Assembly: GCA_016784175.1 (NCBI GenBank)
Contig: JADHVC010000002.1
Coordinates: 330 to 64,329 of the forward strand
DNA: 64,000 nucleotides
Source of the DNA: Patescibacteria group bacterium
Lineage (GTDB): Bacteria; Patescibacteriota; Patescibacteriia; Patescibacteriales; BS150m-G62
Reading direction: 5' to 3'
The notes below the pieces were generated by a model, which worked only from the letters and a program-made list of their open reading frames with translations, was not told the DNA's origin and searched no databases. Of the stretch, positions 4,765-61,838 are shown one piece after another. The position numbers and the translations under genes are program-made. Each line of letters opens with the position of its first letter. The first letter of the stretch is position 1.

Positions 4765-4785
4765 TATATTTCATGAATAAAAAAA

Positions 4786-9479: not shown

Positions 9480-9528
9480 ATTTTTTAAATTTCTTGCTTA
9501 TTACCCTAAAATGAGTTTAAATTAGATT

Positions 9529-10655: not shown

Positions 10656-10699
10656 AACAGAAAATTATTGATGAGGCTGAAAAGATAAACAAATAAAAA

Positions 10700-10748
10700 A
10701 GTCGCTATTGCATAAAAGCTTTATAGCGACTATTATTTTTTTTAAAAA
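10700..10748. terminator. Bidirectional rho-independent terminator
   Basis: AGTCGCTAT (10700-10708) pairs with ATAGCGACT (10723-10731). An A-run lies upstream and ATTATTTTTTTT downstream. It sits between convergent prfB and 10759..11721(-). Confidence 0.7.
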
Positions 10749-10758
10749 AGAACTGTTA

Positions 10759-11721: not shown

Positions 11722-11748
11722 TTTAGTCTCCTTTGTTTTTTTTGCTGT

Positions 11749-12498: not shown

Positions 12499-12501
12499 GT
12501 T

Positions 12502-12984
12502 CTACTCCTTGCCCATTTCTTCAAGTTGAATGTCGGCATAAACATCACCACTGCTGATGGTGCTTCCAGTAAGGACAAACTCATCCTGATTCGCAAAGAT
12601 AAAGTTAAGAATAAATGCGGTTTGAAGTGCGTCTTTGTAGGATTCTTCAAGCTCTTTTACTAAGCTAGCACATCTTGGATTTGCGTGAATTGTTTTTTTA
12701 ATGATCTTCCAATCTGGGAAAGCATTTAAATATATCCAAGATAGCCACTTTTCACGATCAACATATTTTACACTGCCAAATACGGCAATCGCCGCATAGG
12801 TTGGGAATTCTACGACAAGATGCGAAGATTCCTTGATTGTCTGAAAGATTACTTTACAGTATTCGGTTAGTCTTGTGGGGTTATCGGGATCATCCGACAT
12901 TTGAATCTCTTCTAAAAATGATTCAAAATTATCAGCGATTGTAGGGTGTAAGTGAATAGGGTGTAAGTGAATTTTGATGCTCAT
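12502..12984 (-). CDS. Hypothetical protein (160 aa), 2nd gene of the J-domain operon
   Basis: ORF with GGAGA 9 nt upstream of the ATG, 3 nt after the J-domain gene stop. The N-terminal IHLHPIHLHP comes from a 15-nt direct repeat. Confidence 0.5.
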   Translation of the reverse strand: MSIKIHLHPIHLHPTIADNFESFLEEIQMSDDPDNPTRLTEYCKVIFQTIKESSHLVVEFPTYAAIAVFGSVKYVDREKWLSWIYLNAFPDWKIIKKTIHANPRCASLVKELEESYKDALQTAFILNFIFANQDEFVLTGSTISSGDVYADIQLEEMGKE

Positions 12985-12987
12985 TCT

Positions 12988-13281
12988 TTAATTCTCCATT
13001 ACAGGTTTAAAAGTGTTAAGATACTCGAACCATATTGTCAGAGTTACCTTTGTTGGGTTATCAGTTACGCGGGCTGCTCTTTCTTTTTCGTACTCTCCTT
13101 TCTTCTGGGGGTTTGTTAGAGTTTTGTATGTATCTATGATTTTCTCAAGTTTTTTAACTGCTTCGGGATCATCGTTTCGATCTGGATGGTACTCCTTCAA
13201 TAAAGAGTGATAAGCCTGCTTGATTTCGGCAGGTGTTGCTTTATTTGTTAGTCCTAAAATAAAATATAGATCGTGTATCAT
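12988..13281 (-). CDS. Stand-alone J-domain protein (97 aa)
   Basis: DLYFILGLTNKATPAEIKQAYHSLLKEYHPDRNDDPEAVKKLEKIIDTYKTLTNPQKKGEYE is a canonical DnaJ J-domain with the HPD motif. There is no G/F or zinc-finger region. Confidence 0.85.
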   Translation of the reverse strand: MIHDLYFILGLTNKATPAEIKQAYHSLLKEYHPDRNDDPEAVKKLEKIIDTYKTLTNPQKKGEYEKERAARVTDNPTKVTLTIWFEYLNTFKPVMEN

Positions 13282-13383
13282 ATATTTTTTCCTTATTTAA
13301 TTGTGTAAAGAACAAAGGAGAAAAGTTATTCTCACTAACCTTATTTATAGAACTATATAAAAACTTTGTCAAGTTAAATGCAT

Positions 13384-13467
13384 GTAACTGCTCACTATGT
13401 CTGCATTATTTTTGAGCGCATATGGAATATGTAGTAATTTTTAGCAGAATTTAACTTAAAAAAAATT
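13384..13467 (+). mobile_element. Fragment (left ~84 nt) of the foldback element
   Basis: GTAACTGCTCACTATGTCTGCATTATTTTTGAGCGCATATGGAATATGTAGTAATTTTTAGCAGAATTTAACTTAAAAAA... then diverges from the consensus. Confidence 0.85.
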
Positions 13468-13475
13468 AACTTAGG

Positions 13476-13504: not shown

Positions 13505-13552
13505 TAAGGATAGGGTTTTAGCCAAAATTAATATTTTTTAAGTTTAAATAAA

Positions 13553-16500
13553 ATGTCTTTTATCCATTTACATGTTCATTCGCATTATTCTCTTCTGGAT
13601 GGCTTGTCTAGGTTTAATGAATTGATCGAAATTGCACAGGCAGATGGAGCAAATGCTGTTGCTTTAACTGATCATGGTGTAATGTATGGCATAATCGAGT
13701 TTTATCAAGCTTGTAAAAAGGCGGGCATTAAACCTATTGTTGGTTTTGAGGCATATATGGCCAAGGGTTCAATGTTGGAAAAGGTGACCAAGCAAGATGA
13801 AAAGCGTAATTATCATATATTACTTTTGGCTCGGAACAATCAGGGCTATAAAAATTTAATCAAACTTACTTCTATTGCACATCTAGAGGGTTTTTATTAT
13901 AAGCCACGCATAGACTGGGAAACACTTCAAAAATATTCCGAAGGGCTAATTGCTTGTTCGGCTTGTTTGGGTGGAGAAATACCACAATTAATTTTATCTG
14001 ACAAATACGATAAAGCCAAAAAAAGAGCACAAGAACACGAAGAGCTTTTTGGAAAGGGTCACTATTACTTAGAAATTCAGCCTCACCCTACTATTCCAGA
14101 GCAAGATCAAGTAAATCAAAAAATAATTCAAATAGCTAGAGAGACTGGTATTCCATTGGTTGCTACAAACGACTTGCACTACTTAAAGCCTGACGATTAT
14201 GACGCTCAGGACGTTCTTTTGTGCTTGCAAACAAAAGCCAAGAAGAATGATGTTGGTAGGTTTAGTCTTCATGGAAAGGATTTTTACTACAAGAGTGAGC
14301 AGGAAATGCGAGAGGCTTTCCTAGATGTTCAAGAGGCCGTAGACAATACTCAAGTTATTGCAGATATGTGTGATGTTGAAATCGAATTAGGTAATATTCA
14401 GTTGCCTTCTTTCGAAGTGCCAGAGGGTTTTGATGACTTTACATACCTAGAAAAGATTTGTCATGACGGTTTATTGGTTAGATATGAAAAAGATTATAAT
14501 AATGTAGACGAAGAAGTGCGTACCAGATTAGACTTTGAGTTATCGGTTATTAAGAAAATGGGGTGGCCATCATATTTTTCTATCGTTGCTGATTTTGTAA
14601 TGTGGGCTAAGAATAGAGGGATCGCTGTTGGGCCTGGGCGTGGATCTGCTGCTGGGTCGCTAGTTTGCTATGTGATAGGTATCACAAACTTAGATCCGAT
14701 TAAATACGAACTCCTTTTTGAGCGTTTCTTGAATCCCGAGCGTGTATCTATGCCCGATATCGATATGGACTTTTCGGATAATCGAAGAGAAGAAGTTTTG
14801 CGGTATGTTGAGCAAAAATATGGTAAGGATCATGTAGCGCAAATTATTACATTTGGAACAATGGCGGCTCGAGTGGCTATTCGTGATGTTGGTCGTGTCC
14901 TAGATATTCCATTGGCTTTATGTGACAAGTTGGCTAAATTAGTTCCAATGTTTTCTACTTTAAGTGACGCGCTAGAAAATACAGCCGAATTTAAAGATCT
15001 TTATGACAAAGATCCTCAGGCCAAACAAATTGTTGACTTTTCTCTGCGACTAGAAGGTGTGGCAAGGCATGCATCCACTCACGCTTGTGGTGTTTTGATA
15101 ACAAAAAATCCTCTAACAGATTACACCCCGCTACAATTTGGTTCGCAAGAGGGGGGTGACGGGCAACGAGGTATTGTATCGCAATATTCACTTCATCCAG
15201 TAGAGGACTTGGGTCTGCTTAAAATGGATTTTTTAGGTTTAAAAAACCTTACAATAATTGAGTCTGCTATTCGAATTATTAAAGAATCCAATGGCGTTGA
15301 AATAGATATTGAAAAAATACCTCTTGATGACAAACTTGCATATAAATTATTCCAAGATGGAGAAACAACAGGTGTCTTTCAATTCGAGTCATCGGGAATG
15401 AAGCGCTACTTAAAAGACTTGAAACCAACCGAGCTGGAAGATATTATCGCTATGGTGGCCCTCTATCGTCCTGGACCAATGGAGTGGATTCCAGATTTTA
15501 TTGCCGGTAAACATGGCACAAGGACCATCCAATATCTACATCCTAAGCTAGAGCCAATTTTAAGAAATACTTATGGAGTAGCAATTTACCAAGAGCAAGT
15601 TATGCGTATGGCAAGAGACTTGGCTGGTTTTAGTATGGGTCAAGCAGACGTTTTGCGTAAGGCGATGGGTAAAAAGATTGTAAAGTTGTTGGCTGAACAA
15701 AAAGATAAGTTCTTGAACGGGTGTGAAGATAATAACATTGATAGGCGACTCGCTGAACAAATTTTTTCGTTTATTGAACCTTTCGCGGGTTACGGTTTCA
15801 ACAGAAGTCACGCAGCCTGTTACGCTATGATTGGCTATCAAACAGCCTACCTAAAGGCTCACTATCCGGCAGAATTTATGGCTGCTTTATTAACTGCCGA
15901 TCAGCAGCATATCGACAGAATATCGATAGAGATTGACGAATGCAAGGAGATGGGAATAGATGTATTGCAGCCTAATGTTAATAAATCTTTTGAGTCGTTT
16001 ACAGTTGTTAAAAATACAGAAACAGGTAAGAAAGAAATACGTTTTGGTTTAAGGGCGATAAAAAATGTTGGAACAAATATCTCTGAATTTATCATCAAAG
16101 AGAGGATAGAAAATGGAGAATTCTTGGATCTAAGCGACCTATTGGAGCGAGTTATTAATAGAGATATGAACAAGAAGTCTTTAGATAGTTTGATCAAATG
16201 CGGGGCAATGGATGATTTTGGTGATCGAGGAAAATTAATAGCGAACATGGATAATTTACTTGAGTTTAGTAAAGAAGTGGGTAAACTTAAAGCTAATAAT
16301 CAAAATAGTTTATTTGGTGATGTGACTGGTGTAAATAGTATAAATAAGGTTAGGCTGGATAAAACTGGTGTGGTAGAAAAGCAAGATAAGTTAAGATGGG
16401 AAAAGGAACTTCTTGGTCTGTATATTACCGAACATCCGTTTAACGAATATAGAAAATATCTAGAAGGTTTTTGTGTAAATTTGCTTGATTTGCAGGGCTG

Positions 16501-17103: not shown

Positions 17104-17292
17104 ATAACTGCTCACTATACCTGCATCACTTTTTCGCTTAGGATGGAATGTTGGGCAATTTTTTACGCACAATTTAACAAAAATTTTAAACTCGCTTCAC
17201 TCAAACATAAAATTTTTTAAGTTAAATTCTGCTAAAAATTACTACATATTCCATATGCGCTCAAAAATAATGCAGGTATAGTTAGCAGTTAC
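17104..17292 (-). mobile_element. Foldback MITE-like element, full copy (189 bp)
   Basis: ATAACTGCTCACTATACCTGCAT...ATGCAGGTATAGTTAGCAGTTAC. Reverse orientation relative to 39109-39298. No clear flanking direct repeat. Confidence 0.85.
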
Positions 17293-17293
17293 T

Positions 17294-17336
17294 AAAAAAA
17301 AAGTAAAGCCGCATGGTCATCATGCGGCTTTTTTCT
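17294..17336. terminator. Bidirectional rho-independent terminator
   Basis: AAGCCGCATG (17306-17315) pairs with CATGCGGCTT (17321-17330), loop GTCAT. An A9 run lies upstream and a T-run downstream. It sits between convergent dnaE and the giant gene. Confidence 0.8.
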
Positions 17337-17340
17337 TACG

Positions 17341-20300
17341 CTATCTTTTAGCTCCTGAGTAGGCTATTGCTCGGACTATATCCCAAGCAAGAGCGCTTTT
17401 AGGATTACCTTTGTATATATTCTTGAAACTCTTGATGGCTGCTTTCTCAGAATCTAAGTTGCGATTCGTTGGTCTTAATCCATAAGCTATAATTGTTACA
17501 GCTGCATCATCATGAGGGTTAATTCTATCGGGCACCCTCTTGTAGATAGTCTTGAATTCTTGGATAGCTCTTTCTTCTGAGGCCGCATTTCTTTGGTTTG
17601 TCCACCTACCGTTAGCTATTTTTATTACATCTTCCCAGTCTGTTAGTGTGGTTGGGAGTCTGTCGAATGCAGATTTAAAACTACTTACTGCACCGGCTCT
17701 TTCTCCGGCCCCAAGTTTAAGTGTGGTGAATGTGCCGTAGGTAATGAATTCGTTCATAGCAGTCTTTGATTCATCGCTAACCACTTGTTTCTTAACTAAT
17801 TCGGAAATATACTTGGTATTTGTAAGAGCTTCGCTTTCCAAATTTCTCTTTGTGTTGAATTTCGCAACGAATGCATCAATATTAGCTGCAAATACTTCTT
17901 TAGCTTCGCTAAGAATAGACTTAATTAAGTCAGAGTCAGATGTATTCGCTTGTTCTTGTGATTTGCTTTCTGTTGATGCTGCTTCTGCAACTTTTGCATC
18001 TATTGTTAATCTCGCAAGTGCATTTGCCTTGTCAACGATCGCTTGCCATGCTGGGATTAATCTATTTGTAGTTAATACGGTTGTTGTGCTTAAATTACCA
18101 TTAGCATCATACACTTGATAGGTTGGCGCTACATCTGAAACATAACCTCCTCCCCCTCCTCCTCCACCATTATTCGATGGAGCAACATATATTGCATTGC
18201 AACTATTGCCAGAAAGTTCATAACCATTATCGCAAGTTATTACACATGAATTATTTATACTACCGTTATTAACTGTTTTGTTAGAACAAACTTGAATTTC
18301 AGTCGAGGTAGCAGATTCATTATTCCCAGTATCCAATGCTGTGATCTGATAGTAATATACTGTAAACGCAGCTGTAGTCGCATCGGTGAATGTCGAAGTA
18401 GTAATGTCGATAACATTTACCATGTTTGTTGAACTAGCAGTAAATCCAGTTACTGCATCTCTATAAATATTATATTTTGCTAGATCAGGTTCAGTATTGT
18501 CATCCCAGTTAAGAACTACTGTTGTTCCGGTGCCTGATGTTTGACTTAAATTAGTTGGCGCAATAGGTGCAGTTACATCAGCGCAGAAATTACCATTTTT
18601 CGTAAAGCCTAGATTACAAGTTATTACACAATTATTATCAATACTTCCGTTAGCTACTGTGCTATTTGAACATAGTTGAAGTTCAGTGGCAATGACAGAT
18701 TCGTTACCGCTGTCGTCAGCTGCTGTAACTGTGTAGTAGTAGACTGTGAATGCTGCAGTAGTGGCATCAGTAAAGTTGGATGCTGTAACTTGGCTGCCAT
18801 TTACTTGATTAGCGATGTCAGCTGTGACCCCTGTCGATGTTGCGCGATAGACTTCATACTCTAATAGATCATTTTCAACATTATCTGCCCAATTAATAGT
18901 AACCGAAGTTCCATTGCCAGCTGTTTGACTTAGCCCCGTTGGAGCGTCTGGTGCTGTTGAATCGGTTGGAGTTGTAGCGCCAAAAATTGTTAAGTGATCT
19001 GTGTTAGAGTTTAAGGCGATTTTGTAATCGGCATAAGTATTTGCATTGCCAGCTAGTGCTGTAGCAAAAGCGCTGAAGTCAGTTACCGTTGTCCAATCTG
19101 TATCATTCACATCAGCTTTTGTATACGCAGTTTTCGTAGTGGACATTGCAACCCAGTTACTCAAAGAAGTATCCCAATAAGAGTTAGTAAGTGTAGATAA
19201 CTTTGCATAATTGCTTAACGCTGCGCTTATTTCATCTTTATAATAAACTAATTCAATTTCAATGTCATTACTTAGGTTAGTTATTGCTGCTCCAGACGAA
19301 TCATTAGCAGTAATTTCTTTACCTATTCCACCTAAAGGACTAGCTGTACTTGTTTGTGAAACATTGCTTACTTCTTTCGAGGTTATGCTTCCACTAGTTG
19401 CTTCACTTCCAAGTGCATTCGGCGGAACAATAATTCTTATTCCAGATCCACCTGCGCCACTATTATCTAATGAACCTCCACTTGATGGGGTGATAGATTG
19501 AGCTTTAAGTTTTGTGTCCCAGTTAGCAATCGGCGTTAATCTAATGTTATTACTATTTGAGTCCGAACCACTAATTGTTATTGTCCCGAAAGTTGATTGA
19601 GAATATCCATCGGCGACCGCCTTTAGTCTGTAAGTACTATCTACGACTGGTATAGAAAATGTTCCATCCGACTTGGTTGTAGCACCTATTCTTTTTTTAT
19701 TGATCGTGTCTTCTACCCAAACCCAACCATCTAGAACCTCTTCGCCTGCATCATAGTCGGTGTCGCTATTTAAGTCGTTGTATATAGTTCCAGTGATGCT
19801 TCTATTAGCGCTTACTAACTCATAATCAGCAGCAGTATCAGCACTGATCACGATAGCTGTTGGAGGTTGTGGTATGTAGCCGGTAGCTTCAACGCCTGTT
19901 TTGTAATTACCATTTTTAACTGTGATGGAGTAAGCTCCAGTTGCGTCAGTAGTGTCTCCTAGGTAGTCACCAAGAGCTTCGTTCCCAACCCATACCCATG
20001 CGTTCTCGATTGGACCAGAAGTGTCAGTGATTGTGCCGGTTAGTGTAAATATCTCTGTAGCGCTATCTGGTAAAACGAAAGTAACTGTTGAATCTCCGTT
20101 GAATGTGACTGGGTTTGTAGCTGGCTCAATTGATCCTATGCCAGGAATGTGCATATGGAATAGGTAGGTTCCATTTTTTAATTTGATTGCTGCATTTGAA
20201 GCAAGAGTAGATAGTTTTATGTTTTTATGGAATTCATTTGTAGTGCTATCGATATTAATGATAGCTTCCTGTGAGCTAAGTCCATTCGTGAATGCAAGCG

Positions 20301-23300
20301 TTACAGTATTTAGCGCACCGCTAGCTAAAGTAACATCAACGCCACTTGTATTGGCACTTAAGTTAAGGTTGGCTGGACTAGCTGGATAATCGTCAGCATC
20401 AGTTCTTTCGATTTCACCATAGCTCGCTGTCCATGTATCGATTCTATATATACCAGCTGGTGCTTTTATGGAATACATACCAGAGCTATTCGTTTGACCA
20501 ATATATTCTTCTCCGCTTAATTCGCCTCCTGCAGTATATTTCAATGCTCTAACTGGAGTGTTTGCTTGAACTTCATTATTGACAGTGATAGTTCCGCTAA
20601 TAGTATAGTAAGTTAGTGTTGTATCTGGAGTAATATTTAATGTTTGATTCTCACCATTAATAGTTACAGTTTCAGTTGTCGATAATCCAAACTCTGGAAT
20701 ATTAGCTTCTACGCTCCAAGTGCCGTTATCAACATAAAGAATGTAATTACCACTTGAATCTGTGATAGTTTTTGCCTGTCCTAGCCCATCTTGTTTGGTT
20801 GCCCAAATTGGAGCTAGAATAACCGCGTTAGTACCGTCTGTAACTTTACCAGAAATGGTGTAGCTTGGCTTGATAATTTTAAATATTAATTTATTTGCAG
20901 CCGTAATTAATGCATTATTTTCATAAACATCAGCCGTTGCATTACCATCTACATTGTTAATATCATTAGCTTTAACTTTAACATTTTTGTTAGTCTTGAT
21001 TGGTAAGCCAGCTTTAAATACTCCAACCGAATAATCACCATCGTTAGCTAATTTTAAAATAAATTTACCATCAGTGTCCGTTGTTGTATAAGACCCTTGA
21101 GTTGTCCCGTTTGGTTGATAAGCATTAACCTGAGCGTTGCTTATTCCAACTCCTGCCCCATCAAGTACGAAACCGACAATCTCTTTAGAAGTGCTTGTAA
21201 GTGTAAGATTAAAGCTTTGAGCGCTAGATCCGTCTGACTCTACATTAATTGGACGAGGTGCAACCCAATTAGGCATACTTACTTTTTCGATTGATGTTAT
21301 TTTTTCGCGCGCTGGCAAGACTTGTATTTTCCAAATGCCAGCCTTAAGATATAGCACTTCTGCAATTGCGCCTCCCGTACCAGTTACTTTCTTTGTGATA
21401 TTTAGTTCAGGCGAATTTGCAACGATATCAACATTCTCGCCATTTGGGATGCCTGTAATATTAACGGTAATTGCTGCAACTGAACCTGCATCAGCTCGTT
21501 TGAATGTAATATTCTTTGGGTTTACACCTGCACTAATAGTGATTGGTTCAGGAGCACTTATGCCAATATAATCTGCGTTGCTACTATCAAGAGTGATAGA
21601 TTGATCTGTAAATATTTGATAATTGCTAAGTGGAAGGCTAGAGAAAGAATAATTTCCAGTACCGTCATTAGCTAGACTGACTATAGTTTCCAATGGACCA
21701 GTTGTTGGTGAATCCAAATAAATTTTTATAGTGTCGCTACCGTCAGTGTCGGCAGGATTAATCCCTAAGATATTTCCACTTAAACTAGCACTACCAGCTG
21801 GTTTAATAAAGAAGGGGAGTCCAGCAATCGTTTCGCTCAAGTAACCATTTTCATCTAAGATCTTCATGTCGACAGAATATCCGCCAGTGTCAGGACCTCT
21901 AGGAATAGACGAATTAACAATTCCAGCTAAGTCAAAGTGTAAATAATCCTTAATTGGAGTAGTTCCAGTCACGCCAAGGTCAACCGTAATTATGTTAGCA
22001 CTTGTATCAATCGTAACACCGTCATTATTTGCCCCGCCAGAAGTTTCTGCTTCAGTTGAGAAGCTGACAGTCCCACTATTAACTTCATTTAAGTCATTAT
22101 TTGCAGGTGAATATACATCCTTTTTAGCGTTATTAATATTAAACCCTTTTGGAAAAGTTAATAATATTTTGTAATTGTCTTTAATTTGTTTATTTGTAGG
22201 AAGGTTAACAAAATAAGTTGTAATTTGACTAGCTAGGGCGTTCATAGGGATAGCTCCCGCTTTCATTATTCCCATGTCAGACATAGAGAGAGTTGCTCCT
22301 TCGCCGCTACTATTAGGAACGAGTTCGCCTTTAGTGCTGCTGCTAGACTGGATAGGTGCTTGAAACGAGGTTGTTCCGCTTAATATATTGCCCGAAAGAT
22401 CAGTCGCCCCACTACCATCTACATTAGCGCTTGCCATATCAACATAGATATTTTTACCGCTAACATTTGCAGTCTGTAGTCCCAAATTTTTTATTACAAC
22501 TGTGTTGCTAACTGCATCATAAGTAAAGCTAGAATTAGTAGTGCTAAGGTCAATATTTGTGCCAGATCCGACTACAGTTTCAGCATCACCCCATCTAAGT
22601 TTATAATTTGTTAGGTTAAGCACTGATGATGACCATTTTTGTGTGTTTGCAGCTGTTGATGCATTCATTGGTTCAGAAAATGTAATAGCTACACCGTTGT
22701 CATCTGCATTGCTAAACATTATCTTTGGCGCAATTGTATCTAGCGTAGAGTTTGTTTGAAAGTAAACCACAGTACTGCTAGCTAAATAGTTACCAACCAT
22801 ATCGGCTAGACCATTCGAGCCGCCAATAATTTTTAAAGCATAATTTGCATTTGGGGCCAATACTTGACTTGGAATAAAATTCAATGAATAGGTCTCCGCA
22901 TTGTAGTTAATATTACCACTAATTTGTGATGTTCCTCTTAGTAAAGAAATTGTATTTGAATTAATTGTTGTTGGATTAATGCCTTCTGAAAATTGAAGAA
23001 TCAGTGAACCAGGATTAATCGATATATTTGTAGCGTTGTTGGCTGGCCAAGTGCCAAGAATGGTAGGTCTGGTACTATCAACAACAGAAGTTGTATTTAC
23101 TTTAAAGCGACTTGCAAACACAACGCTATTCGCAGTATTTCTGCTAATATTAGGATCACCCATTGGTATTCCACTAGCGCTTTTTAATGCCCCGGTTGCT
23201 ATTATTTTGTAACTACCTGCTATTAAATTCGAACTTGGTGTAATTGTTATATTTTTCTTTGTGCTATCAATACTAACTGTTGAGCTAACAAGAGTCTCTA

Positions 23301-26046
23301 TTTCGACATTATCACTAATTGTAGTTTTTAAAAGTTTAATATTACCACTTGCAGTGATAGAGCTAGTATCCATAGGATCAGAGAAGCTGATATTTATCTT
23401 TGTATTTGGTGCAATATTAGACATTCCATCGCTAGGAGTCACCCCAATAATTCTAGGTGGTGTCATGTTGCCTTGTCCAAAATTAGTCCACGCATCTTCT
23501 GTACTAAAATCAGCTCCAGTAGTAAATGTAATAGTATAGTTTCCATTCGAATTGTTACCGACTATGCTATTGCCAGACATGTCTCTAATATTGCCACTAA
23601 TTATTAGAGTGTAAGTTTTATTAGCTTCTAAACCTTCACTTGGTACCGTAATAACTCCTAGGTGAGTATTGTGAGAAAATCCATACGCAACATTGTCGTC
23701 ATGATTGTCGCTATGGACAACAGTGTATCCTGCCACTGGATTGTTGATTGGATTAGTTTGATCGGCACTTAATACTACATTGCTCGTTGTAAATAAGGTA
23801 GAATCAATATCTTCGGAAAAAACAACAAATATTTTATAACTACTATCCTTGGGGGGTACGCCGGTTTGGCTATCAGTTGGGAAGGTCGCAACGATTATAG
23901 GTTTAGTGTTATCACCTGTTGATCCACCACCTGTCCCAGTGTAAAGGACTTTGTTTTGACCTGTAATGTTTGAGCTTCCGACAAAAATGTCCGAGATCGA
24001 TTCTTCAAAATAATTATCCTTAGATATCACGAGGTTGTAAGGGCGATTGTTCTTGACATCTAAAGTGTAATTGCCACTTGAATCTGTAGTAGCAGAAGCA
24101 CCAGTGCCCTCTGCAAATACGAGCGCATTAGAAATACCAGCACCTTGTTCGTCTACAATGGTCCCAGATATAGTGCTTGTATCGCCCCAAGCACTCGAGT
24201 CTTCAACTTTAATAACTAAAGGTGATGATTCTGCTTCTTCGTGTGTTATTGCAAGTGGGTCAGCTGAAAGTTGAGTTTCGCCATTGTTAGTTAATACTTG
24301 CAAATGGTAAAGTATTCCGTTTGTGATTGCGTCAGTATCATCGATATGCGCCTGAGGGATTGTGAATTTAAAGTAACCATTCGATTCTCTAGAGCCAATA
24401 ATATGGTAATGTTTTGGGTCCAGATGGTTCATGACTCCTGTGCCGCTGTCGATAGCGTAATGTAATTCTGAGCTAATATTGATGGTCGGTGTTCTTGGAT
24501 CACTAGCTTGGATAAATATATCAAGGTCAGATCCAGCTTTTGCAATGTTTATTGGCATGTGCTTTATCATTGGACCGTTAGCAGCTTGTCCACCATAATT
24601 CGAGAAATTTGGTTGTTCGGTTGGTGATGCAGAGCTTTGCGGGTTAATAGTAGTCCTTTTTACAAAATCAAGTGCATTATTGTCAGCATCCCACCCATTA
24701 CCCATGCTTTCATCTTTCCCACCACTTATCATGTTGACCAATATTGATGTCCCAAAGGCCTTTCTTTCTAGTGATTCATTGTCGCTAAGAGCACTAGCAG
24801 CAAAGCTTTCTGCATACTCTGCAGAACCCCAACCTAGTTTGTCAGCTTCTTTTGTTCCAGTAAATAATCGTATGTGACCACCTTCATCAGTTAAGCCAAT
24901 AACAGACTTGCAGTAATCTAGTGTACTCGCCGGACAAGTCATATCTGCTGCGCCATAAAATTTTGCTGACCCAATTAAGTAGTAGCTATAAGGCTCAATG
25001 TATGTGTTGGCTGGAAGCGTAACCTTTGTACTCCATGACTCAGAGGTGGCAGTACTGTATTGTAACATCCATCCACCTATATTCACCCTTGTACTTCCAG
25101 AGTTATATAGCTCGATGAATTCTGACCAAGCTTCTCCGTTAATTCTTGTAGCTAATTCCGATATCCTTACATTAATCGGATAAGTAATACTTTTTACTGT
25201 CTCTACTCCAAGATTACCAGCGATATCTGTAATATTAGGCGAAATTGTTAGTGTAGTATCTTCGGTTGGAATTACTTTGCTCGATATTATTCTGTAAACA
25301 TTGTCTGAAATTTTGTCAACTTGATGAATAGCTATTTCATTATTAAAGGTATAATTGCTTGCATTTTTAGCTAAAATTTCTTTTACAGCTTCGGAGAATT
25401 TTACATCAACCGATATGGGGTTAACTAAGTTAGCATCTTCTACCGTTGGTTGAATAGAGTCTATAGTTATTGCGCTTGATGTTATTGTAGACAATGGCTC
25501 AGCACCATCATCACTTAAAATTACTCCACCGGGCACTATTGTAACTCTTATTTCGTGGTCAGCAGAGCTAGCTGCTGCTGTTTGAATTGTAAGATAAAAG
25601 GTTTTACTAGTGCCAATCGAAATGGAATTCTTTAAAAAAAGATAAATTTCACTTTCACTGTACCAGTCACTAGATGAATCCAGTATTACTAAGCTATCAT
25701 TCGAGTCAAACCCATTGGCTAAACTTTCAGATTCTTGATAAAGAGAAACGCCACTCAATGAACTGTCGTTAATACTTTTTAAATCTGCTTGCGAAAAGCC
25801 TGTTCCATTAAGTTGAACAATTATATCTGTTAGTTTTCTACCAGGCTTACCCGCTATATCTATTTGAAAAACGGCTCTTGAGCTAGAGTCTTTTTTTATT
25901 TTATTGTTCGTTTGATCAATCAAATCAGTAATAACTACCGATCCATCATTAGCACTCGCCTGCATGGGTGCTAAAAAAATTACTAATAAAAAACACACCA
26001 TTAAGCGTGCGAAATGATACCATGTTCGTTTTGTTTGTTTGATCAT
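17341..26046 (-). CDS. Giant (2901 aa) multidomain secreted surface protein
   Basis: Signal peptide (LMVCFLLVIFLAPMQASA). Lamin-tail-domain-like segment (RISELATRINGEAWSEFIELYNSGSTRVNIGGWMLQY). Several SbsA/Big-like Ig modules (PTILGTWPANNATNISINP...). At least five CarboxypepD_reg-like modules (ISGKVTDGTNA...TDSSGNYILYV). Two FN3 plus 4-Cys modules. A G8 tract. Three C-terminal ~35-40-aa repeats ending AYSGAKR. Confidence 0.85.
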   Translation of the reverse strand: MIKQTKRTWYHFARLMVCFLLVIFLAPMQASANDGSVVITDLIDQTNNKIKKDSSSRAVFQIDIAGKPGRKLTDIIVQLNGTGFSQADLKSINDSSLSGVSLYQESESLANGFDSNDSLVILDSSSDWYSESEIYLFLKNSISIGTSKTFYLTIQTAAASSADHEIRVTIVPGGVILSDDGAEPLSTITSSAITIDSIQPTVEDANLVNPISVDVKFSEAVKEILAKNASNYTFNNEIAIHQVDKISDNVYRIISSKVIPTEDTTLTISPNITDIAGNLGVETVKSITYPINVRISELATRINGEAWSEFIELYNSGSTRVNIGGWMLQYSTATSESWSTKVTLPANTYIEPYSYYLIGSAKFYGAADMTCPASTLDYCKSVIGLTDEGGHIRLFTGTKEADKLGWGSAEYAESFAASALSDNESLERKAFGTSILVNMISGGKDESMGNGWDADNNALDFVKRTTINPQSSASPTEQPNFSNYGGQAANGPMIKHMPINIAKAGSDLDIFIQASDPRTPTINISSELHYAIDSGTGVMNHLDPKHYHIIGSRESNGYFKFTIPQAHIDDTDAITNGILYHLQVLTNNGETQLSADPLAITHEEAESSPLVIKVEDSSAWGDTSTISGTIVDEQGAGISNALVFAEGTGASATTDSSGNYTLDVKNNRPYNLVISKDNYFEESISDIFVGSSNITGQNKVLYTGTGGGSTGDNTKPIIVATFPTDSQTGVPPKDSSYKIFVVFSEDIDSTLFTTSNVVLSADQTNPINNPVAGYTVVHSDNHDDNVAYGFSHNTHLGVITVPSEGLEANKTYTLIISGNIRDMSGNSIVGNNSNGNYTITFTTGADFSTEDAWTNFGQGNMTPPRIIGVTPSDGMSNIAPNTKINISFSDPMDTSSITASGNIKLLKTTISDNVEIETLVSSTVSIDSTKKNITITPSSNLIAGSYKIIATGALKSASGIPMGDPNISRNTANSVVFASRFKVNTTSVVDSTRPTILGTWPANNATNISINPGSLILQFSEGINPTTINSNTISLLRGTSQISGNINYNAETYSLNFIPSQVLAPNANYALKIIGGSNGLADMVGNYLASSTVVYFQTNSTLDTIAPKIMFSNADDNGVAITFSEPMNASTAANTQKWSSSVLNLTNYKLRWGDAETVVGSGTNIDLSTTNSSFTYDAVSNTVVIKNLGLQTANVSGKNIYVDMASANVDGSGATDLSGNILSGTTSFQAPIQSSSSTKGELVPNSSGEGATLSMSDMGIMKAGAIPMNALASQITTYFVNLPTNKQIKDNYKILLTFPKGFNINNAKKDVYSPANNDLNEVNSGTVSFSTEAETSGGANNDGVTIDTSANIITVDLGVTGTTPIKDYLHFDLAGIVNSSIPRGPDTGGYSVDMKILDENGYLSETIAGLPFFIKPAGSASLSGNILGINPADTDGSDTIKIYLDSPTTGPLETIVSLANDGTGNYSFSSLPLSNYQIFTDQSITLDSSNADYIGISAPEPITISAGVNPKNITFKRADAGSVAAITVNITGIPNGENVDIVANSPELNITKKVTGTGGAIAEVLYLKAGIWKIQVLPAREKITSIEKVSMPNWVAPRPINVESDGSSAQSFNLTLTSTSKEIVGFVLDGAGVGISNAQVNAYQPNGTTQGSYTTTDTDGKFILKLANDGDYSVGVFKAGLPIKTNKNVKVKANDINNVDGNATADVYENNALITAANKLIFKIIKPSYTISGKVTDGTNAVILAPIWATKQDGLGQAKTITDSSGNYILYVDNGTWSVEANIPEFGLSTTETVTINGENQTLNITPDTTLTYYTISGTITVNNEVQANTPVRALKYTAGGELSGEEYIGQTNSSGMYSIKAPAGIYRIDTWTASYGEIERTDADDYPASPANLNLSANTSGVDVTLASGALNTVTLAFTNGLSSQEAIINIDSTTNEFHKNIKLSTLASNAAIKLKNGTYLFHMHIPGIGSIEPATNPVTFNGDSTVTFVLPDSATEIFTLTGTITDTSGPIENAWVWVGNEALGDYLGDTTDATGAYSITVKNGNYKTGVEATGYIPQPPTAIVISADTAADYELVSANRSITGTIYNDLNSDTDYDAGEEVLDGWVWVEDTINKKRIGATTKSDGTFSIPVVDSTYRLKAVADGYSQSTFGTITISGSDSNSNNIRLTPIANWDTKLKAQSITPSSGGSLDNSGAGGSGIRIIVPPNALGSEATSGSITSKEVSNVSQTSTASPLGGIGKEITANDSSGAAITNLSNDIEIELVYYKDEISAALSNYAKLSTLTNSYWDTSLSNWVAMSTTKTAYTKADVNDTDWTTVTDFSAFATALAGNANTYADYKIALNSNTDHLTIFGATTPTDSTAPDAPTGLSQTAGNGTSVTINWADNVENDLLEYEVYRATSTGVTADIANQVNGSQVTASNFTDATTAAFTVYYYTVTAADDSGNESVIATELQLCSNSTVANGSIDNNCVITCNLGFTKNGNFCADVTAPIAPTNLSQTSGTGTTVVLNWDDNTEPDLAKYNIYRDAVTGFTASSTNMVNVIDITTSTFTDATTAAFTVYYYQITALDTGNNESATSTEIQVCSNKTVNNGSINNSCVITCDNGYELSGNSCNAIYVAPSNNGGGGGGGGYVSDVAPTYQVYDANGNLSTTTVLTTNRLIPAWQAIVDKANALARLTIDAKVAEAASTESKSQEQANTSDSDLIKSILSEAKEVFAANIDAFVAKFNTKRNLESEALTNTKYISELVKKQVVSDESKTAMNEFITYGTFTTLKLGAGERAGAVSSFKSAFDRLPTTLTDWEDVIKIANGRWTNQRNAASEERAIQEFKTIYKRVPDRINPHDDAAVTIIAYGLRPTNRNLDSEKAAIKSFKNIYKGNPKSALAWDIVRAIAYSGAKR

Positions 26047-26204: not shown

Positions 26205-26270
26205 GTAACTGCCCGCTATATCTGCATTATTTTTGAGCGCATATGGAATATGTAGTAATTTTTAGCAGAT
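26205..26270 (+). mobile_element. Fragment (left ~66 nt) of the foldback element
   Basis: GTAACTGCCCGCTATATCTGCATTATTTTTGAGCGCATATGGAATATGTAGTAATTTTTAGCAGA. It is truncated 4 nt from the stop codon of 26274..27176(-). Confidence 0.85.
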
Positions 26271-27207: not shown

Positions 27208-27396
27208 GTAACCGCTCACTGTGTCTGCATTATTTTTAAGCGCATATGGAATATGTAGTAATTTTTAGCAGAACTTAACTTAAAAAATTTTATGTTTGAG
27301 TGAAGCAAGTTTAAAATTTTTGTTAAATTGTGTGTAAAAAATTGCACAATATTCCATCCTAAGCGAAAAAGTGATGTAGATATAGTGAGCAGTTAG
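27208..27396 (+). mobile_element. Foldback MITE-like element, full copy (189 bp)
   Basis: GTAACCGCTCACTGTGTCTGCAT...ATGTAGATATAGTGAGCAGTTAG. No clear flanking direct repeat. Confidence 0.85.
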
Positions 27397-39108: not shown

Positions 39109-39298
39109 GTAACTGCTCACTATACTTGCATTATTTTTGAGCGCATATGGAATATGTAGTAATTTTTAGCAGAATTTAACTTAAAGAATTTTATGTTTGA
39201 GTGAAGCGAGTTTAAAATTTTTGTTAAATTGTGCGTAAAAAAATTGCCCAATATTCAATCCTAAGCGAAAAAGTGATGCAAGTATAGTGAGCAGTTAC
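39109..39298 (+). mobile_element. Foldback MITE-like element, full copy (190 bp)
   Basis: GTAACTGCTCACTATACTTGCAT...ATGCAAGTATAGTGAGCAGTTAC. The first 23 nt at the two ends are perfectly complementary. Flanks are AAAATATT and AAAAGATT (7/8). Confidence 0.9.
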
Positions 39299-41551: not shown

Positions 41552-41602
41552 AATATTCCATCCTAAGCAAAAAAAGTGATGTAGGTATAAGTGAGCACTT
41601 AC
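41552..41602 (+). mobile_element. Fragment (right ~51 nt) of the foldback element
   Basis: AATATTCCATCCTAAGCAAAAAAAGTGATGTAGGTATAAGTGAGCACTTAC. Confidence 0.8.
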
Positions 41603-45222: not shown

Positions 45223-45410
45223 GTAACTACTCACTATGTCTGCATTATTTTTGAGCGCATATGGAATAAGTAGTAATTTTTAGCAGAATTTAACTTAAAA
45301 AATTTTTGTTTGAGTGAAGCGAGTTTAAAATTTTTATTAAATTGTGCGTAAAAAATTGCCCAATATTCCATCCTAAGCGAAAAAGTGATGTAGATATAGT
45401 GAGTAGTTAC
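45223..45410 (+). mobile_element. Foldback MITE-like element, full copy (188 bp)
   Basis: GTAACTACTCACTATGTCTGCAT...ATGTAGATATAGTGAGTAGTTAC. No clear flanking direct repeat. Confidence 0.85.
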
Positions 45411-49289: not shown

Positions 49290-49490
49290 ATAACTACTCA
49301 CTATGTCTGCATTATTTTTAAGCGCATATGGAATATGTAGTAATTATTAGCACAATTTAACTTAAAAAAAATATGTTTGAGTGAAGCGAGTTTAAAATTT
49401 TTGTTTAAAATTTTTGTTAAATTGTGCGTAAAAAATTGCCCAATATTCCATCCTAAGCGAAAAAGTGATGTAGATATAGTAAGTAGTTAC
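49290..49490 (+). mobile_element. Foldback MITE-like element, full copy (201 bp, internal 13-nt duplication)
   Basis: ATAACTACTCACTATGTCTGCAT...ATAGTAAGTAGTTAC. Contains an extra TTTAAAATTTTTG unit. AAAAAAAAC flanks both sides (49281-89 and 49491-99; low complexity). Confidence 0.85.
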
Positions 49491-49520
49491 AAAAAAAACA
49501 CTCTCATAAGTTGAGAGTGT
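49491..49520 (-). terminator. Rho-independent terminator (minus strand) after 49546..51588
   Basis: ACACTCTCA (49498-506) pairs with TGAGAGTGT (49512-20). The A-run at 49491-98 gives the T-tract on the minus strand. Confidence 0.7.
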
Positions 49521-49545
49521 TATTAATGAAATATTTTATGTTGTA

Positions 49546-52773: not shown

Positions 52774-52859
52774 TTTAACTGTAATCTTGATGAATATTTG
52801 CTAAAAATTAATTTGTATGACCTTAGCATATAAGAAAAAAAATGTCAAGGGTTTTTTAG

Positions 52860-53048
52860 GTAGATACTCACTATACCTCCATTATTTTTGAGCGCATATG
52901 GAATATGTAGTAATTTTTAGCACAATTTAACCTAAAAAATTTTATGTTTGAGTAAAGCGAGTTTAAAATTTTTGTTAAATTGTGCGTAAAAAATTGCCCA
53001 ATATTCCATCCTAAGCGAAAAAGTGATTCAGGCATAGTGAGTATCTAC
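52860..53048 (+). mobile_element. Foldback MITE-like element, full copy (189 bp) with co-varying termini
   Basis: GTAGATACTCACTAT...ATAGTGAGTATCTAC. Both termini carry the same variant (GATAC instead of ACTGC). Flanks are TTTTTTAG and CTTTTTAG (7/8). Confidence 0.9.
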
Positions 53049-53052
53049 CTTT

Positions 53053-54300
53053 TTAGAAACTTGAATTTTTCTTTGCATATTCTTGCTTTTTTAATTCAAT
53101 TAACTTCGAATAAATCCCAGCAATACTGTTATAATAGTCTTGCTTATTAAAGGATTTAGCTTTTAAATAGGCATTCTCGCCAATTTCCTTTAAGTTGTAA
53201 TTACTAAGTTCCATTATCTTGAATTTTAAGTCATTTACATCTCCAAGTTTAAATAGGAAGCCGTTTACGCCATGCTCAATTATCTCTTTAATTCCGCCTA
53301 TGTTAGTAACTATTATTGGTTTTTTTAACGCCATTGCCTCCAATATTGTAAGTGGCATATTCTCTGGCCAAATAGACGGCACGATAACAGCTGTAGCATT
53401 GTTAATAATGTTTTTTAGACTATCTCCATATTTTGGGCCCACTAGTTTAATATTTGTAATATTCCTGCTTTCGATTATCTCTGAATATTTTTTATAATCC
53501 GGTCCTGTACCAACTATAATGAGACTAGACTTGTGATCGCTAAATGCATCAATGAGAACATCTATCCCTTTTTCTTCCGATATTCTTCCAAAATACAAAT
53601 AATAGCTTTTATCATGTTTATTTGAAAAATCTCGTTGATTATTGATATTACCTAAATTGGTGAAATTATTCAAGGTTTGAATTTTATTTGAGTTCACTCC
53701 AAATTTAATGCAAGTATTTCGAAGGTAATCAGATGGAGTAATAAACAGATCAACTTTTTCGTAGGTTTTTAAAAAAACATTATGCAAATAAGCCTCTAAC
53801 ATAGCCAATAAGCTTTTTTTGTAAGAGTTTTTAGCACACTTTTTTAATAAACAATTATAATATTTTTGACCAATACATGAATTACATATTTTGCCTTGGC
53901 TAAAAAGCTGATAATTCGGACAAATTATTTTGTAGTCATGAAGAGTCATAACCATTGGAATATTGTGCTTCTTGATTGTATTTATGATTGCTGGGGATAA
54001 CTGATGATAAATATTATGCATATGCACAATGTCTGGCCGTTCTGCCTCTAGTAAGCTATCTAATTTTTTTTGAGCATCAAAATTATAAAATATTTTAAAG
54101 ATATTCACTAAGCTAAATTTTTCCAGATTAACTTGTTTGGCAAAATATTTACCGTATTTGGAAAATTCATTGCGCGAATCATTCATGGAAAAATGAATTA
54201 CTTCGTGTCCATGAGATTTTAGTAATTCTGACAACTCTAAATAGTGGCGCTCAGCCCCACCTCGTAAATAATGAAATTTATTAATTTGAAGTATTTTCAT
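53053..54300 (-). CDS. Glycosyltransferase family 4 (GT-B)
   Basis: MKILQINKFHYLRGGAERHYLELSELL at the N-terminus. C-terminal ENMPLTILEAMALKKPIIVTNIGGIKEII. Confidence 0.8.
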   Translation of the reverse strand: MKILQINKFHYLRGGAERHYLELSELLKSHGHEVIHFSMNDSRNEFSKYGKYFAKQVNLEKFSLVNIFKIFYNFDAQKKLDSLLEAERPDIVHMHNIYHQLSPAIINTIKKHNIPMVMTLHDYKIICPNYQLFSQGKICNSCIGQKYYNCLLKKCAKNSYKKSLLAMLEAYLHNVFLKTYEKVDLFITPSDYLRNTCIKFGVNSNKIQTLNNFTNLGNINNQRDFSNKHDKSYYLYFGRISEEKGIDVLIDAFSDHKSSLIIVGTGPDYKKYSEIIESRNITNIKLVGPKYGDSLKNIINNATAVIVPSIWPENMPLTILEAMALKKPIIVTNIGGIKEIIEHGVNGFLFKLGDVNDLKFKIMELSNYNLKEIGENAYLKAKSFNKQDYYNSIAGIYSKLIELKKQEYAKKNSSF

Positions 54301-55354: not shown

Positions 55355-56743
55355 ATGATAAATTATTTAATCATAAAAATTAAAAATAGTCAAGAGCTAG
55401 CCTTGTTTTCTGTTACTGCTTTGTTGCTCTTCTTGCTCATGTTCTTTTTGGGTACTACAACGCTCGCAATTAAATTCATCCTAATTATTATTATTGGCTT
55501 GATTCCAGTGTTCTTTAAGAAGCCAATTATTTTTTTATATTTTTTGTTTCTTGTTACGCCAAGTTTACGCGTTCTTACTCGAGATGAACTAATATTCCAA
55601 AATTATGGAATCAATTTTAACGTATTAATTCACTTGTCTCTGCTATTTTACGGATCTTTGATGGCTTGGCGGTCAAGAAGTCAGTTACTAGTTTATGTTA
55701 AAAAGTATCAATTTATTAGTTATTTTGCTGTTTTTTTATTTTTATCTGGTGCAAGTATTTTTTATTCGCTAGATAGGCCAAGTACATTAGATCAGTTTGT
55801 TAGGTTATGTAGTTCGTCTTTTGGAATCTTTTTCTTTGCCTTACTCGCAATAAACACAAGAAAAGATTTTTATAATCTTATTTATTGCATAGTGCTAGGT
55901 TTAATTGTTCCTAGTATAGTTGGGTACTACGAATTTTTTGCGGGTACGGGTTGGTATGACCCGTCGATGAGAACTTATAGGATCGACAGTACTTTTACAC
56001 ACCCAGTTATTTTTTCTGGATATCTATTGTTGGCTATGCCAATTTTATATGCTTTAGTGGAGGACAAGATTAAAAATAGAGTAAAAGTTGGTTTGTTCGC
56101 GTTCTTAGGTAATAACCTATTCTTTGTGATTGCAAGCTTGACACGTGGTATTTGGAATGCAGGGGCTGCAATGTTACTTGTTTTTGGTGGCATAAAGAGC
56201 AGGAAGACACTTGTGGCTGGAATTTTAATCTTTGTTCTGACTTTTATGTTTATCGAACCTCTCAAGCAAAGAGTTTATGATACATTTAGACCTAGTCCAG
56301 ATAGTTCTTTTCAAACAAGACTAGATATTATAAAGACAACCTTTCCTGCTTTTTGGAGTGCACCATTTTTGGGTTATGGTTTTGGTGCATTTGAAGTTAT
56401 CCACTTGCGTTACAATGAAGATGCACGTTTTTGGCCGTCGCTACAAGCACATAACGATTACCTAAGAATTTTAATTGAGCTTGGTGTAATAGGTGCAATT
56501 CTATATCTATCTATTTTTATTTCTTTGTTATTGCTTATTAGAAGGTTATATTTAGGTGCTGATAGTAAAGAACTTCAAAATTATTATTTCAGTCTAGTTT
56601 TAATTTGGATAGCGGCTGGTACAATTTCCTTAAGTGATAATTTTTTAAGAATAGTAGAGTTCCAACAGATCGCCTGGGCTTACACTGGAGCGGTCTTAGC
56701 CTTTGGGTTAGTAAAGAAAGAAAGTACGCACAAAAAAAGATAG
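55355..56743 (+). CDS. O-antigen ligase/polymerase family (Wzy_C) membrane protein
   Basis: At least 10 hydrophobic helices. LQAHNDYLRILIELGVIGAILYLSIF is the Wzy_C signature. Confidence 0.75.
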   Translation: MINYLIIKIKNSQELALFSVTALLLFLLMFFLGTTTLAIKFILIIIIGLIPVFFKKPIIFLYFLFLVTPSLRVLTRDELIFQNYGINFNVLIHLSLLFYGSLMAWRSRSQLLVYVKKYQFISYFAVFLFLSGASIFYSLDRPSTLDQFVRLCSSSFGIFFFALLAINTRKDFYNLIYCIVLGLIVPSIVGYYEFFAGTGWYDPSMRTYRIDSTFTHPVIFSGYLLLAMPILYALVEDKIKNRVKVGLFAFLGNNLFFVIASLTRGIWNAGAAMLLVFGGIKSRKTLVAGILIFVLTFMFIEPLKQRVYDTFRPSPDSSFQTRLDIIKTTFPAFWSAPFLGYGFGAFEVIHLRYNEDARFWPSLQAHNDYLRILIELGVIGAILYLSIFISLLLLIRRLYLGADSKELQNYYFSLVLIWIAAGTISLSDNFLRIVEFQQIAWAYTGAVLAFGLVKKESTHKKR

Positions 56744-56932
56744 GTAACTACTCACTATACCTGCATCACCTTTTCGCTTAGGATGTAATATTGGGCAATT
56801 TTTTACGCACAAGTTAACAAAAATTTTAAATTCGCTTCACTCAAACATAAAATTTTTTAAGTTATATTCTGCTAAAAATTACTACATATTCCATATGCGC
56901 TCAAAAATAATGCAGGTATAGTGAGTAGTTAC
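56744..56932 (-). mobile_element. Foldback MITE-like element, full copy (189 bp) with perfect 8-bp flanking direct repeat
   Basis: GTAACTACTCACTATACCTGCAT...ATGCAGGTATAGTGAGTAGTTAC. AAAGATAG occurs at 56736-56743 and again at 56933-56940. The left copy contains the TAG stop of 55355..56743. Confidence 0.92.
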
Positions 56933-59920: not shown

Positions 59921-60109
59921 GTAACTACTCACTATATCTACATCACTTTTTTACTTAGGATGAAATATTGGGCAATTTTTTACACACAATTTAACAAAAA
60001 TTTTAAACTTGCTTCACTCAAACATAAAATTTTTTAAGTTAAATTCTGCTAAAAATTACTACATATTCCATATGCGCTTAAAAATAATGCAGATATAGTG
60101 AGCACTTAC
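59921..60109 (-). mobile_element. Foldback MITE-like element, full copy (189 bp)
   Basis: GTAACTACTCACTATATCTACAT...ATGCAGATATAGTGAGCACTTAC. Flanks are TAACCTTA and TAATCATA (6/8). Confidence 0.85.
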
Positions 60110-61649: not shown

Positions 61650-61838
61650 GTAAATACTCACTATATCTGCATCACTTTTTCGCTTAGGATGGAATATTGG
61701 GCAATTTTTTACGCAAAATTTAACAAAAATTTTAAACTCGCTTCACTTAAACATAAAATTTTTTAAGTTAAATTCTGCTAAAAATTACTACATATTCCAT
61801 GTGCGCTCAAAAATAATACAGACATAGTGAGCAGTTAC
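61650..61838 (-). mobile_element. Foldback MITE-like element, full copy (189 bp)
   Basis: GTAAATACTCACTATATCTGCAT...ATACAGACATAGTGAGCAGTTAC. Flanks are CTCTCTCT and CACTTTCT (6/8). Confidence 0.85.

Follow-up and report, generated by a model that had tools for sequence, protein, structure and literature searches.

A palindromic MITE family in a Patescibacteria genome and the paired changes at its tips

Among the mobile repeats of bacteria, Correia/NEMIS of Neisseria, ERIC/IRU of enterobacteria, RUP of Streptococcus pneumoniae and Nezha of cyanobacteria are generally known as non-coding elements of 100-200 bp with terminal inverted repeats (TIRs) and target-site duplications (TSDs). Like the known bacterial miniature inverted-repeat transposable elements (MITEs) in general, they occur in many intergenic copies near gene ends, can fold over the whole element into a long hairpin and carry no transposase of their own. 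Here we describe an element to which all of this applies, located at 52860-53048 of a 64-kb stretch of DNA (the window) from a metagenome-assembled genome (MAG) of Patescibacteria, or candidate phyla radiation (CPR). The element is one copy, w52860, of a 189-bp non-coding repeat family. Unlike Correia and RUP, which have TA duplications, this family has an 8-bp TSD and ends starting with GTAAC. Its tips are about 4 times as variable as its interior, which is the opposite of the usual MITE pattern, and its host, unlike those of the MITEs named above, belongs to Patescibacteria. Our main concern is the long palindrome formed by the two arms and the excess of changes that occur in matching form at both tips of the same copy.

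The repeat family and its hairpin

The window sits in a contig of 112,948 bp, and the DnaE protein of the host is identical to one recorded for a Patescibacteria group bacterium; it shares 79% identity with the DnaE of each of two sister species and about 64% with that of Falkowbacteria, the closest relatives with a name. A profile hidden Markov model (HMM) of the family finds 9 full copies of 188-201 bp and 5 fragments in the window (Table 1), which amounts to about one copy or fragment per 4.6 kb; a 15-nt tip probe allowed up to 3 mismatches gives 26 matches where 1.9 are expected. The TIRs are 23 bp long, start with GTAAC and have the consensus GTAACTRCTCACTATRYCTGCAT, with ends that read GTAACTRCTCAC...; w52860 itself starts with GTAGATACTCACTAT and ends with ATAGTGAGTATCTAC (in an extended reading, GTAGATACTCACTATACCTCCAT...ATTCAGGCATAGTGAGTATCTAC). 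Within a copy the two 23-nt tips are identical at 17-23 of the 23 positions. The TSD lies in AT-rich DNA, and its two halves match at 6 or more of 8 positions in 7 of 11 copies (Table 1, and 8/8 in the further copy L013a), a match with a chance of about 0.009 per copy in the local base composition. The consensus copy has stops in all six frames and no open reading frame (ORF) spans the element. ORFs were called only in two variant copies, w45223, which is frameshifted, and w52860, where the tip variant makes an ATG; the remaining frames of the copies have no start codon.

Further copies were found outside the window: one on contig L001 of an unrelated metagenome, by an arm-core pattern scan of JGI metagenomes, and three on contig L013 of the same assembly, which has similar coverage and was reached through ORFs called inside copies (2 proteins in a set of 5.8 billion proteins). 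In the sister species represented by contig L015, the same junction between dnaE and a giant gene holds a bidirectional terminator and no element, and is thus an empty site. The TIRs, the 8-bp TSDs, the dispersed non-coding copies and the empty sister site together make it very probable that the element is a MITE, and one of a new family.

Table 1 Copies, fragments and terminal features of the repeat family in the window
Feature	Position	Strand	Tips, TSD or model range	Location and remarks
Full copy w52860	52860-53048	+	Outer 15 nt identical at both tips; GTAGATAC replaces GTAACTRC; mismatches at positions 16, 20, 21	Canonical orientation; copy singled out by the initial annotation
Left TIR of w52860	52860-52882	+	23 nt
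Right TIR of w52860	53026-53048	+	23 nt
Left TSD half of w52860	52852-52859		TTTTTTAG; 7/8 match to right half
Right TSD half of w52860	53049-53056		CTTTTTAG	Holds stop codon of minus-strand gene 53053-54300
Full copy w17104	17104-17292	-	TATACC variant at both tips	Between dnaE stop codon and A-tract of bidirectional intrinsic terminator 17303-17330
Full copy w27208	27208-27396	+	Tips uncompensated, 18/23; TSD decayed
Full copy w39109	39109-39298	+	Tips 23/23; private paired change at pair 18 (TATACT); TSD 7/8
Full copy w45223	45223-45410	+		Convergent intergenic region; 68-aa ORF inside called by gene caller
Full copy w49290	49290-49490	+	13-nt internal tandem duplication GTTTAAAATTTTT; TSD 7/8	Within T-tract of minus-strand terminator, stem 49497-49521
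Full copy w56744	56744-56932	-	Tips 23/23, TATACC variant; TSD 8/8 (AAAGATAG on + strand)	Begins directly after stop codon of gene 55355-56743
Full copy w59921	59921-60109	-	Tips uncompensated, G:T at pair 7; TSD 6/8
Full copy w61650	61650-61838	-	Tips uncompensated; TSD 6/8
Right-end fragment	2034-2070	+	Model 153-189	TAA of its CCTAAGCG motif is the stop codon of gene 1296-2036
Right-end fragment	10615-10655	+	Model 149-189	Encodes last codons and stop of prfB (9529-10644)
Left-arm fragment	13384-13471	+	Model 1-88	Upstream of dnaE
Left-arm fragment	26205-26270	+	Model 1-66
Right-end fragment	41552-41602	+	Model 141-189	Convergent intergenic region

The initial annotation of this DNA had described the element as an imperfect palindrome over its whole length, and our analysis bears this out. 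When the left arm of the consensus is aligned with the right arm in reverse complement, 71 of 95 columns agree, and the family profile HMM matches every full copy on the opposite strand too, over model positions 1-189. The apex was found at ...TGTTTGAGT(G/A)AAGCGAG..., where the centre of symmetry had been placed. RNAalifold was applied to an alignment of 11 full copies and gave one hairpin of 75 pairs, to which the terminal pair was added for a total of 76 pairs. Folding of both strands, a check that had been proposed together with the palindrome, likewise returned a long hairpin. As DNA, w52860 forms a single long hairpin of -39.6 kcal/mol (z = -9.5); as RNA its two strands reach -73.4 kcal/mol (z = -13.0) and -64.1 kcal/mol (z = -10.4), and 0 of 200 shuffles fold as stably. 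In each of the 11 copies it is the same strand that has the more stable RNA fold (-69 to -77 versus -36 to -66 kcal/mol), and this also holds for the sister-species element described below, with an advantage of about 4-34 kcal/mol over all. Transition mismatches between the arms, read on the better-folding strand and counted over both families, are T:G or G:T in 12 cases versus 4 (binomial P = 0.077).

Variation is not evenly spread along this structure. Deviations from the consensus affect 9.5% of the alignment cells in the outer 23 bp and 2.4% of those in the interior, with a sharp step at position 23/24. A plausible source of the high tip variability is inter-copy conversion, which, given the minimal homology that recombination needs, would stop short of the outermost ~25 bp of a dispersed repeat. 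Selection or assembly effects may also have contributed to it.

Paired changes within and between families

A second observation of the initial annotation was that some copies depart from the consensus at both ends in a complementary way. The changes that it listed are all present: with a consensus tip of GTAACT(G/A)C, w52860 has GTAGATAC, w39109 has TATACTTGCAT and both w56744 and w17104 have TATACCTGCAT, each at both tips. The copies that it named as uncompensated, w27208, w59921 and w61650, are so. On the 76-pair structure, 96.8% of the cells of the 11 full copies are paired. Five pairs (10 cells) are changed on both sides, and all of them lie within the outer 18 bp. At pairs 4/201 and 5/200 the two-sided change occurs only in w52860, and at pair 18/187 only in w39109. 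The states at pair 7/198 are A-T in 5 copies, G-C in 3, G:T in 2 and A.C in 1; those at pair 17/188 are T-A in 6, C-G in 4 and C.A in 1.

Covariation, which the initial annotation had proposed to test on all genomic copies, was tested on the 11 full copies retrieved. Column shuffles gave a mean of 2.7 two-sided pairs, with 13 of 500 reaching 5 pairs and 2 of 500 reaching 10 cells. In a permutation of whole arms, which preserves linkage within each tip, mismatches between a copy's own 23-nt tips numbered 28 compared to a permuted mean of 38.1 (P = 0.0007). We also simulated independent mutation on a neighbour-joining tree with the rate calibrated to the observed 48 changed tip cells; this produced 1.4-2 covarying pairs on average, with a probability of about 0.01-0.05 for at least 5 pairs and of 0.0005 or less for at least 10 cells. 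The excess of paired tip changes is real, but few events underlie it.

The form of some of these changes is informative. The identical outer tract of w52860 is perfect and contiguous over 15 nt, includes three derived bases and lies directly beside mismatches, and it looks like a short copied tract. At pairs 7 and 17 all four combinations of states occur, and the half-way states G:T and A.C both exist; the four combinations call for recurrent double changes or for movement of sequence between arms or copies. The fragment at 10615-10655 has only three differences from the right-arm consensus (positions 16, 24 and 26), all of which equal the left-arm state. This hybrid fragment is direct evidence of transfer between arm types.

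In order to compare families, we used a diverged homologue in the other sister species (contig L010), located just after dnaE (13540-13737) and flanked by its own 8-bp TSD at 7/8. It is 58% identical to the family consensus (42% change). The covariance model of the family scores it at 63 bits in the same orientation and at 33 bits in the other, and its fold is again the long hairpin described above, with internal loops in comparable places (-74.5 kcal/mol, z = -10; other strand -61.3). In the model-fitted alignment 34 pairs are unchanged, 26 are changed on both sides and still paired (12 in the outer 30 pairs and 14 inside), none is changed on both sides and broken, 6 are changed on one side and paired, 5 are changed on one side and broken, and 5 are gapped; two-sided changes thus account for 26 of the 37 changed pairs, and the coincidence of changes at partner positions has a Fisher P of 4e-9. 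In a structure-blind alignment the corresponding counts are 41 unchanged, 10 two-sided and still paired, 4 two-sided and broken, 4 one-sided and paired, 12 one-sided and broken, and 5 gapped (Fisher P = 3e-5). Such coinciding changes indicate that the arms did not drift apart independently. On this longer time scale the palindrome is maintained over its whole length. With respect to an RNA structure, the comparison consists of two lineages, and a DNA palindrome is expected to give the same pattern. The full-length palindrome would then be an old trait of the element lineage. The idea that each family was instead re-born by fold-back of one arm agrees with an arm similarity that is about equally high within an element, but it is weakened by the preference of the covariance model for one orientation of the sister element and by orthologous-arm scores (14 + 16) that exceed the cross-arm scores (10 + 7).

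How the arms may be kept alike

Our preferred reading is of an ordinary MITE in which templated copying from arm to arm makes the two arms evolve together, and we hold this reading to be evenly poised between right and wrong. A DDE-type MITE would insert in AT-rich DNA near terminators and would be mobilised in trans, the DDE transposase, most likely one of IS66 type, being supplied by a gene elsewhere in the genome. Complementarity of the arms would mainly be kept by occasional copying of one arm onto the other, for which template switching at the quasi-palindrome in replication and short gene-conversion tracts between the inverted repeats are candidate processes. A mutation in one tip would then be either erased or copied to the other tip, leaving paired changes such as GTAGATAC in w52860. 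After insertion, resident copies would otherwise decay independently, and these would be the uncompensated copies. The host would have no need of the hairpin as RNA. Template switching is known to homogenise the arms of inverted repeats and to make compensatory changes in one step (PMC8794818, PMC7202029, PMC8604942). The initial annotation had taken the paired changes as a sign that a hairpin is maintained and that they reflect more than transposase binding. Of this proposal the excess over independent mutation stands, whereas the inner pairs are uncompensated and a role as RNA is unlikely.

Several observations weigh against arm copying. Among the 44 inner pairs there are 0 two-sided and 20 one-sided changes (Fisher P = 0.011 by cells), and position 1 has four unpaired changes. 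The sample is 11 full copies, and 2 of the 5 covarying pairs are shared and may each go back to one ancestral event. The tree-aware probability by pairs, which is the conservative value, is 0.01-0.05. Internal loops and arm-specific differences persist, contrary to what unlimited homogenisation of the arms would leave. No relation was seen between TSD intactness and tip identity, so that copying is not linked to the insertion event itself. The IS66 assignment is drawn from the end sequence and the TSD length, and end-sequence scans of public genome, metagenome and viral collections found no autonomous element with matching ends. Finally, the data are short-read metagenome assemblies, and the interior of w56744 differs at 5 sites between two of them. 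In a related test, the idea that young copies, those with an intact TSD, carry perfect tips was rejected for want of any correlation.

The main rival to arm copying is sub-lineage inheritance, in which an ordinary MITE has no arm-to-arm process, a few master copies with symmetric tips together with chance account for the pattern, and the palindrome is a legacy of the element's origin. Sub-lineages do exist: w27208, w45223 and w49290 share a left G16 and a right A20, two positions that do not pair with each other, interior sites group w27208 with w59921 and w49290 with w52860 and L013a, and the polymorphisms at 7/198 and 17/188 are common to several copies. The number of further pair types is not above that in shuffles (447 of 500 reach the observed value), the tree simulation by pairs is consistent with this explanation at the level given above, and variants that appear private could exist in unsampled copies. 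However, a master would still have to gain the same change at both tips, and the binding of two ends by one transposase does not favour that and does not alone predict joint tip change. Three paired changes are private to single copies, the own-tip permutation gives P = 0.0007, and the four-gamete violation between pairs 7 and 17 needs recurrent double changes. The coincidence of changes along the whole stem between families and the hybrid arm fragment also speak against this rival. We consider sub-lineage inheritance, judged here on 11 copies, somewhat unlikely. A further explanation places selection on the element itself, if fold-back of one particular strand as single-stranded DNA were needed for transposition or copying, in which case only lineages with an intact hairpin would spread; in a variant of it, the tips might be repaired against each other in a panhandle-like intermediate. 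Two families that share 58% identity have kept the hairpin and its internal loops, the same strand folds better throughout, the T:G and G:T mismatches lean to that strand, and the lack of bias in recent one-sided changes is as expected if selection acts on active masters only. On the other hand, an 8-bp TSD with TIRs is the signature of double-strand DDE chemistry, for which no hairpin is needed, and we know of no such fold-back mechanism for IS66-like elements. The strand bias is not significant and could come from strand-biased C-to-T mutation, given that 10 of the 14 window copies carry the better-folding strand on the G-rich + strand; as GC skew stays positive throughout the window, without a switch, orientation relative to replication was uninformative. 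Tip identity does not follow TSD intactness either. Selection of this kind seems quite unlikely to us, and equally doubtful is the proposal that such a single-stranded fold-back is the working form of the element, and that the lineage is copied or repaired via a snap-back (panhandle-like) intermediate in which one tip serves as template for renewed synthesis of the other. If true, the latter would jointly explain the tips that change in step, the survival of the hairpin through 42% divergence and the better folding of the same strand, and the family would be a DDE-type MITE with ends kept by end-to-end templating, in a CPR bacterium.

A hairpin selected by the host as RNA, for example as a terminator, an mRNA stabiliser or an RNase III site, would fit the position of the copies. 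They lie 0-55 nt past a stop codon, with the exception of w39109 (381 nt), and a copy or fragment occupies 6 of 7 convergent intergenic regions compared to 7 of 28 co-directional and 1 of 7 divergent ones (Fisher P = 0.003). The folding as RNA is very stable with G:U pairs that favour one strand, and conservation is higher in the interior than in the tips and flanks. The orientations do not agree with such a role, since between co-directional genes the transcript would contain the weaker-folding strand in 6 full copies and the stronger in 1, the other 4 full copies being in convergent regions. Separate intrinsic terminators adjoin copies, and w49290 lies beyond the terminator of its upstream gene. 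The hairpin is followed by no T-run, the inner stems of resident copies contain 12 broken cells with no compensation, one-sided changes in resident copies preserve a wobble pair no more often than expected, and no Rfam family matches: nothing was found at the gathering score, and at E < 1 there were just far-sub-threshold long plant microRNA hairpins. An RNA function of this kind is improbable. A role as intrinsic terminator in particular was rejected, given 30% G+C, a 76-pair stem, no fixed T-run and the canonical terminators that adjoin copies. It could also be argued that repeat collapse or inverted-repeat chimeras made the symmetric tips during assembly. Coverage is ~9x in SPAdes-type short-read metagenome contigs, contigs break inside copies (L003, L005, L013), and the difference in w56744 noted above is of the expected sort. 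Nevertheless, unique flanks are within k-mer reach of the tips; two ENA assemblies carry an identical w52860 and an independent Logan contig has the same left 50 nt (contigs L002, L004 and L003); TSD matches of 7/8, 7/8 and 8/8 tie the flanks of w52860, w39109 and w56744 to single insertions; and an artefact would not invent bases absent from all other copies. We regard it as highly improbable. As regards w56744, five copy-specific bases (positions 56770, 56813, 56831, 56839 and 56865) are present in the window and in ERZ24794647, ERZ24794645 has the family consensus at all five sites, and the tips are alike in both assemblies. Either inter-copy gene conversion in one strain or repeat collapse would account for this difference.

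Genomic surroundings and comparison with known systems

Canonical terminators adjoin w17104, w49290 and w56744. The location of w49290 in a T-tract and of w17104 against an A-tract suggests a preference for A/T runs at terminators. Promoter-like hexamers inside the copies are no commoner than in shuffles. A lone tip-like sequence, ATAATTACTCACTATATCTATAT, is found at 9457-9480 upstream of prfB without a recognisable remainder of the element. In both sister species prfB and dnaE are adjacent (L010 8904-10001, L015 8785-10001). In the window they are separated by 2.7 kb with three minus-strand genes (10759-12984) in the region 10615-13471, and this insert is flanked by the right-end fragment (terminus 10655) and the left-arm fragment (terminus 13384), the termini of which face the insert. 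From this arrangement, the insert looks like a MITE-associated rearrangement or capture.

Other features of the surroundings were also noted. Genes at 3631-6723 encode PrgI-like, TraC-like and TraG/VirB4-type P-loop ATPase proteins (type IV secretion or pilus-like), and are kept in both sister species. A 63-bp tandem repeat, 94% identical, lies within a TSP3-like gene at 1404-1529. A gene of 2901 aa with internal repeats occupies 17341-26046; its counterpart at the same junction in L015 has 2888 aa with LTD and CarboxypepD_reg domains. L010 has at 8656-8874 a second, unrelated palindromic element of ~200 bp with tips TATATTGGGACTGTCGCCAAACTC, between a phosphoribosyltransferase gene and prfB, and MITE-like palindromes may be common in this clade.

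The searches of the host genome covered the window, 12 kb of one other contig and short flanks. On the contig of the window, no copies occur in 8.7 kb of DNA before it or in 3 kb after it, and no transposase domain was found in the window or the fetched flanks, about 100 kb of genome. The arm-core pattern had no match in the GTDB species genomes; in viral contigs neither it nor the tip pattern matched, and PLSDB plasmids gave no match to the element. One match to the tip pattern in the genome scan, in a Bacteroidales coding region, was dismissed as chance, as it had no second end and no HMM match. A full-text literature search returned no description of MITEs in CPR bacteria, the sole co-mention being concerned with diversity-generating retroelements.

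The genomes of Patescibacteria are small, and mobile DNA is usually said to be scarce in them. The present family documents a dense set of MITEs in one of them, with nearly all convergent junctions of the window occupied. Its copies break short-read assemblies, have provided genes, prfB among them, with stop codons and C-termini, and bound the apparent rearrangement between prfB and dnaE; the family can serve as a strain-typing marker and is a warning for binning and assembly of this lineage. The co-variation of the tips is a small, statistically supported example of concerted evolution of transposon inverted repeats, a modest curiosity that does not amount to a new kind of system. Should a genome-wide analysis confirm it, it would offer a clean natural case for weighing template switching against selection in the maintenance of long hairpins of mobile DNA.

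With regard to a possible mobiliser, the closest described system is the IS66 family, which has inverted repeats of 20-30 bp starting with GTAAGCG and direct repeats of 8 bp (PMC11946415, citing TnCentral). The element resembles it in having inverted repeats of 23 bp that start with GTAA and a direct repeat of 8 bp. It differs in that the start is GTAACTG, so that only GTAA is shared exactly with GTAAGCG, a G and a C further in matching as well, and in that no tnpA, tnpB or tnpC is seen in the window or fetched flanks. Another group, the REP/BIME repeats mobilised by RAYT (TnpA-REP), are 20-40 nt long and have neither a TSD nor a pair of 23-bp TIRs. They are similarly palindromic intergenic repeats between convergent genes and near terminators, and the element is set apart from them by its clear 8-bp TSDs. 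As for the paired tips, the closest parallel is template switching at quasi-palindromes, documented at E. coli hotspots and in the way RNA hairpins arise and are maintained, where several bases are likewise changed in one step in such a way that the arms match again (PMC7202029, PMC8794818, PMC8604942). The documented repeats are mostly short and close together, whereas in the present element ~160 nt separate the tips, which form the base of a long stem, and the process here is deduced from the pattern; its likeness to template switching lies in the 15-nt tract of w52860 with three derived bases and in the hybrid arm at 10615-10655.

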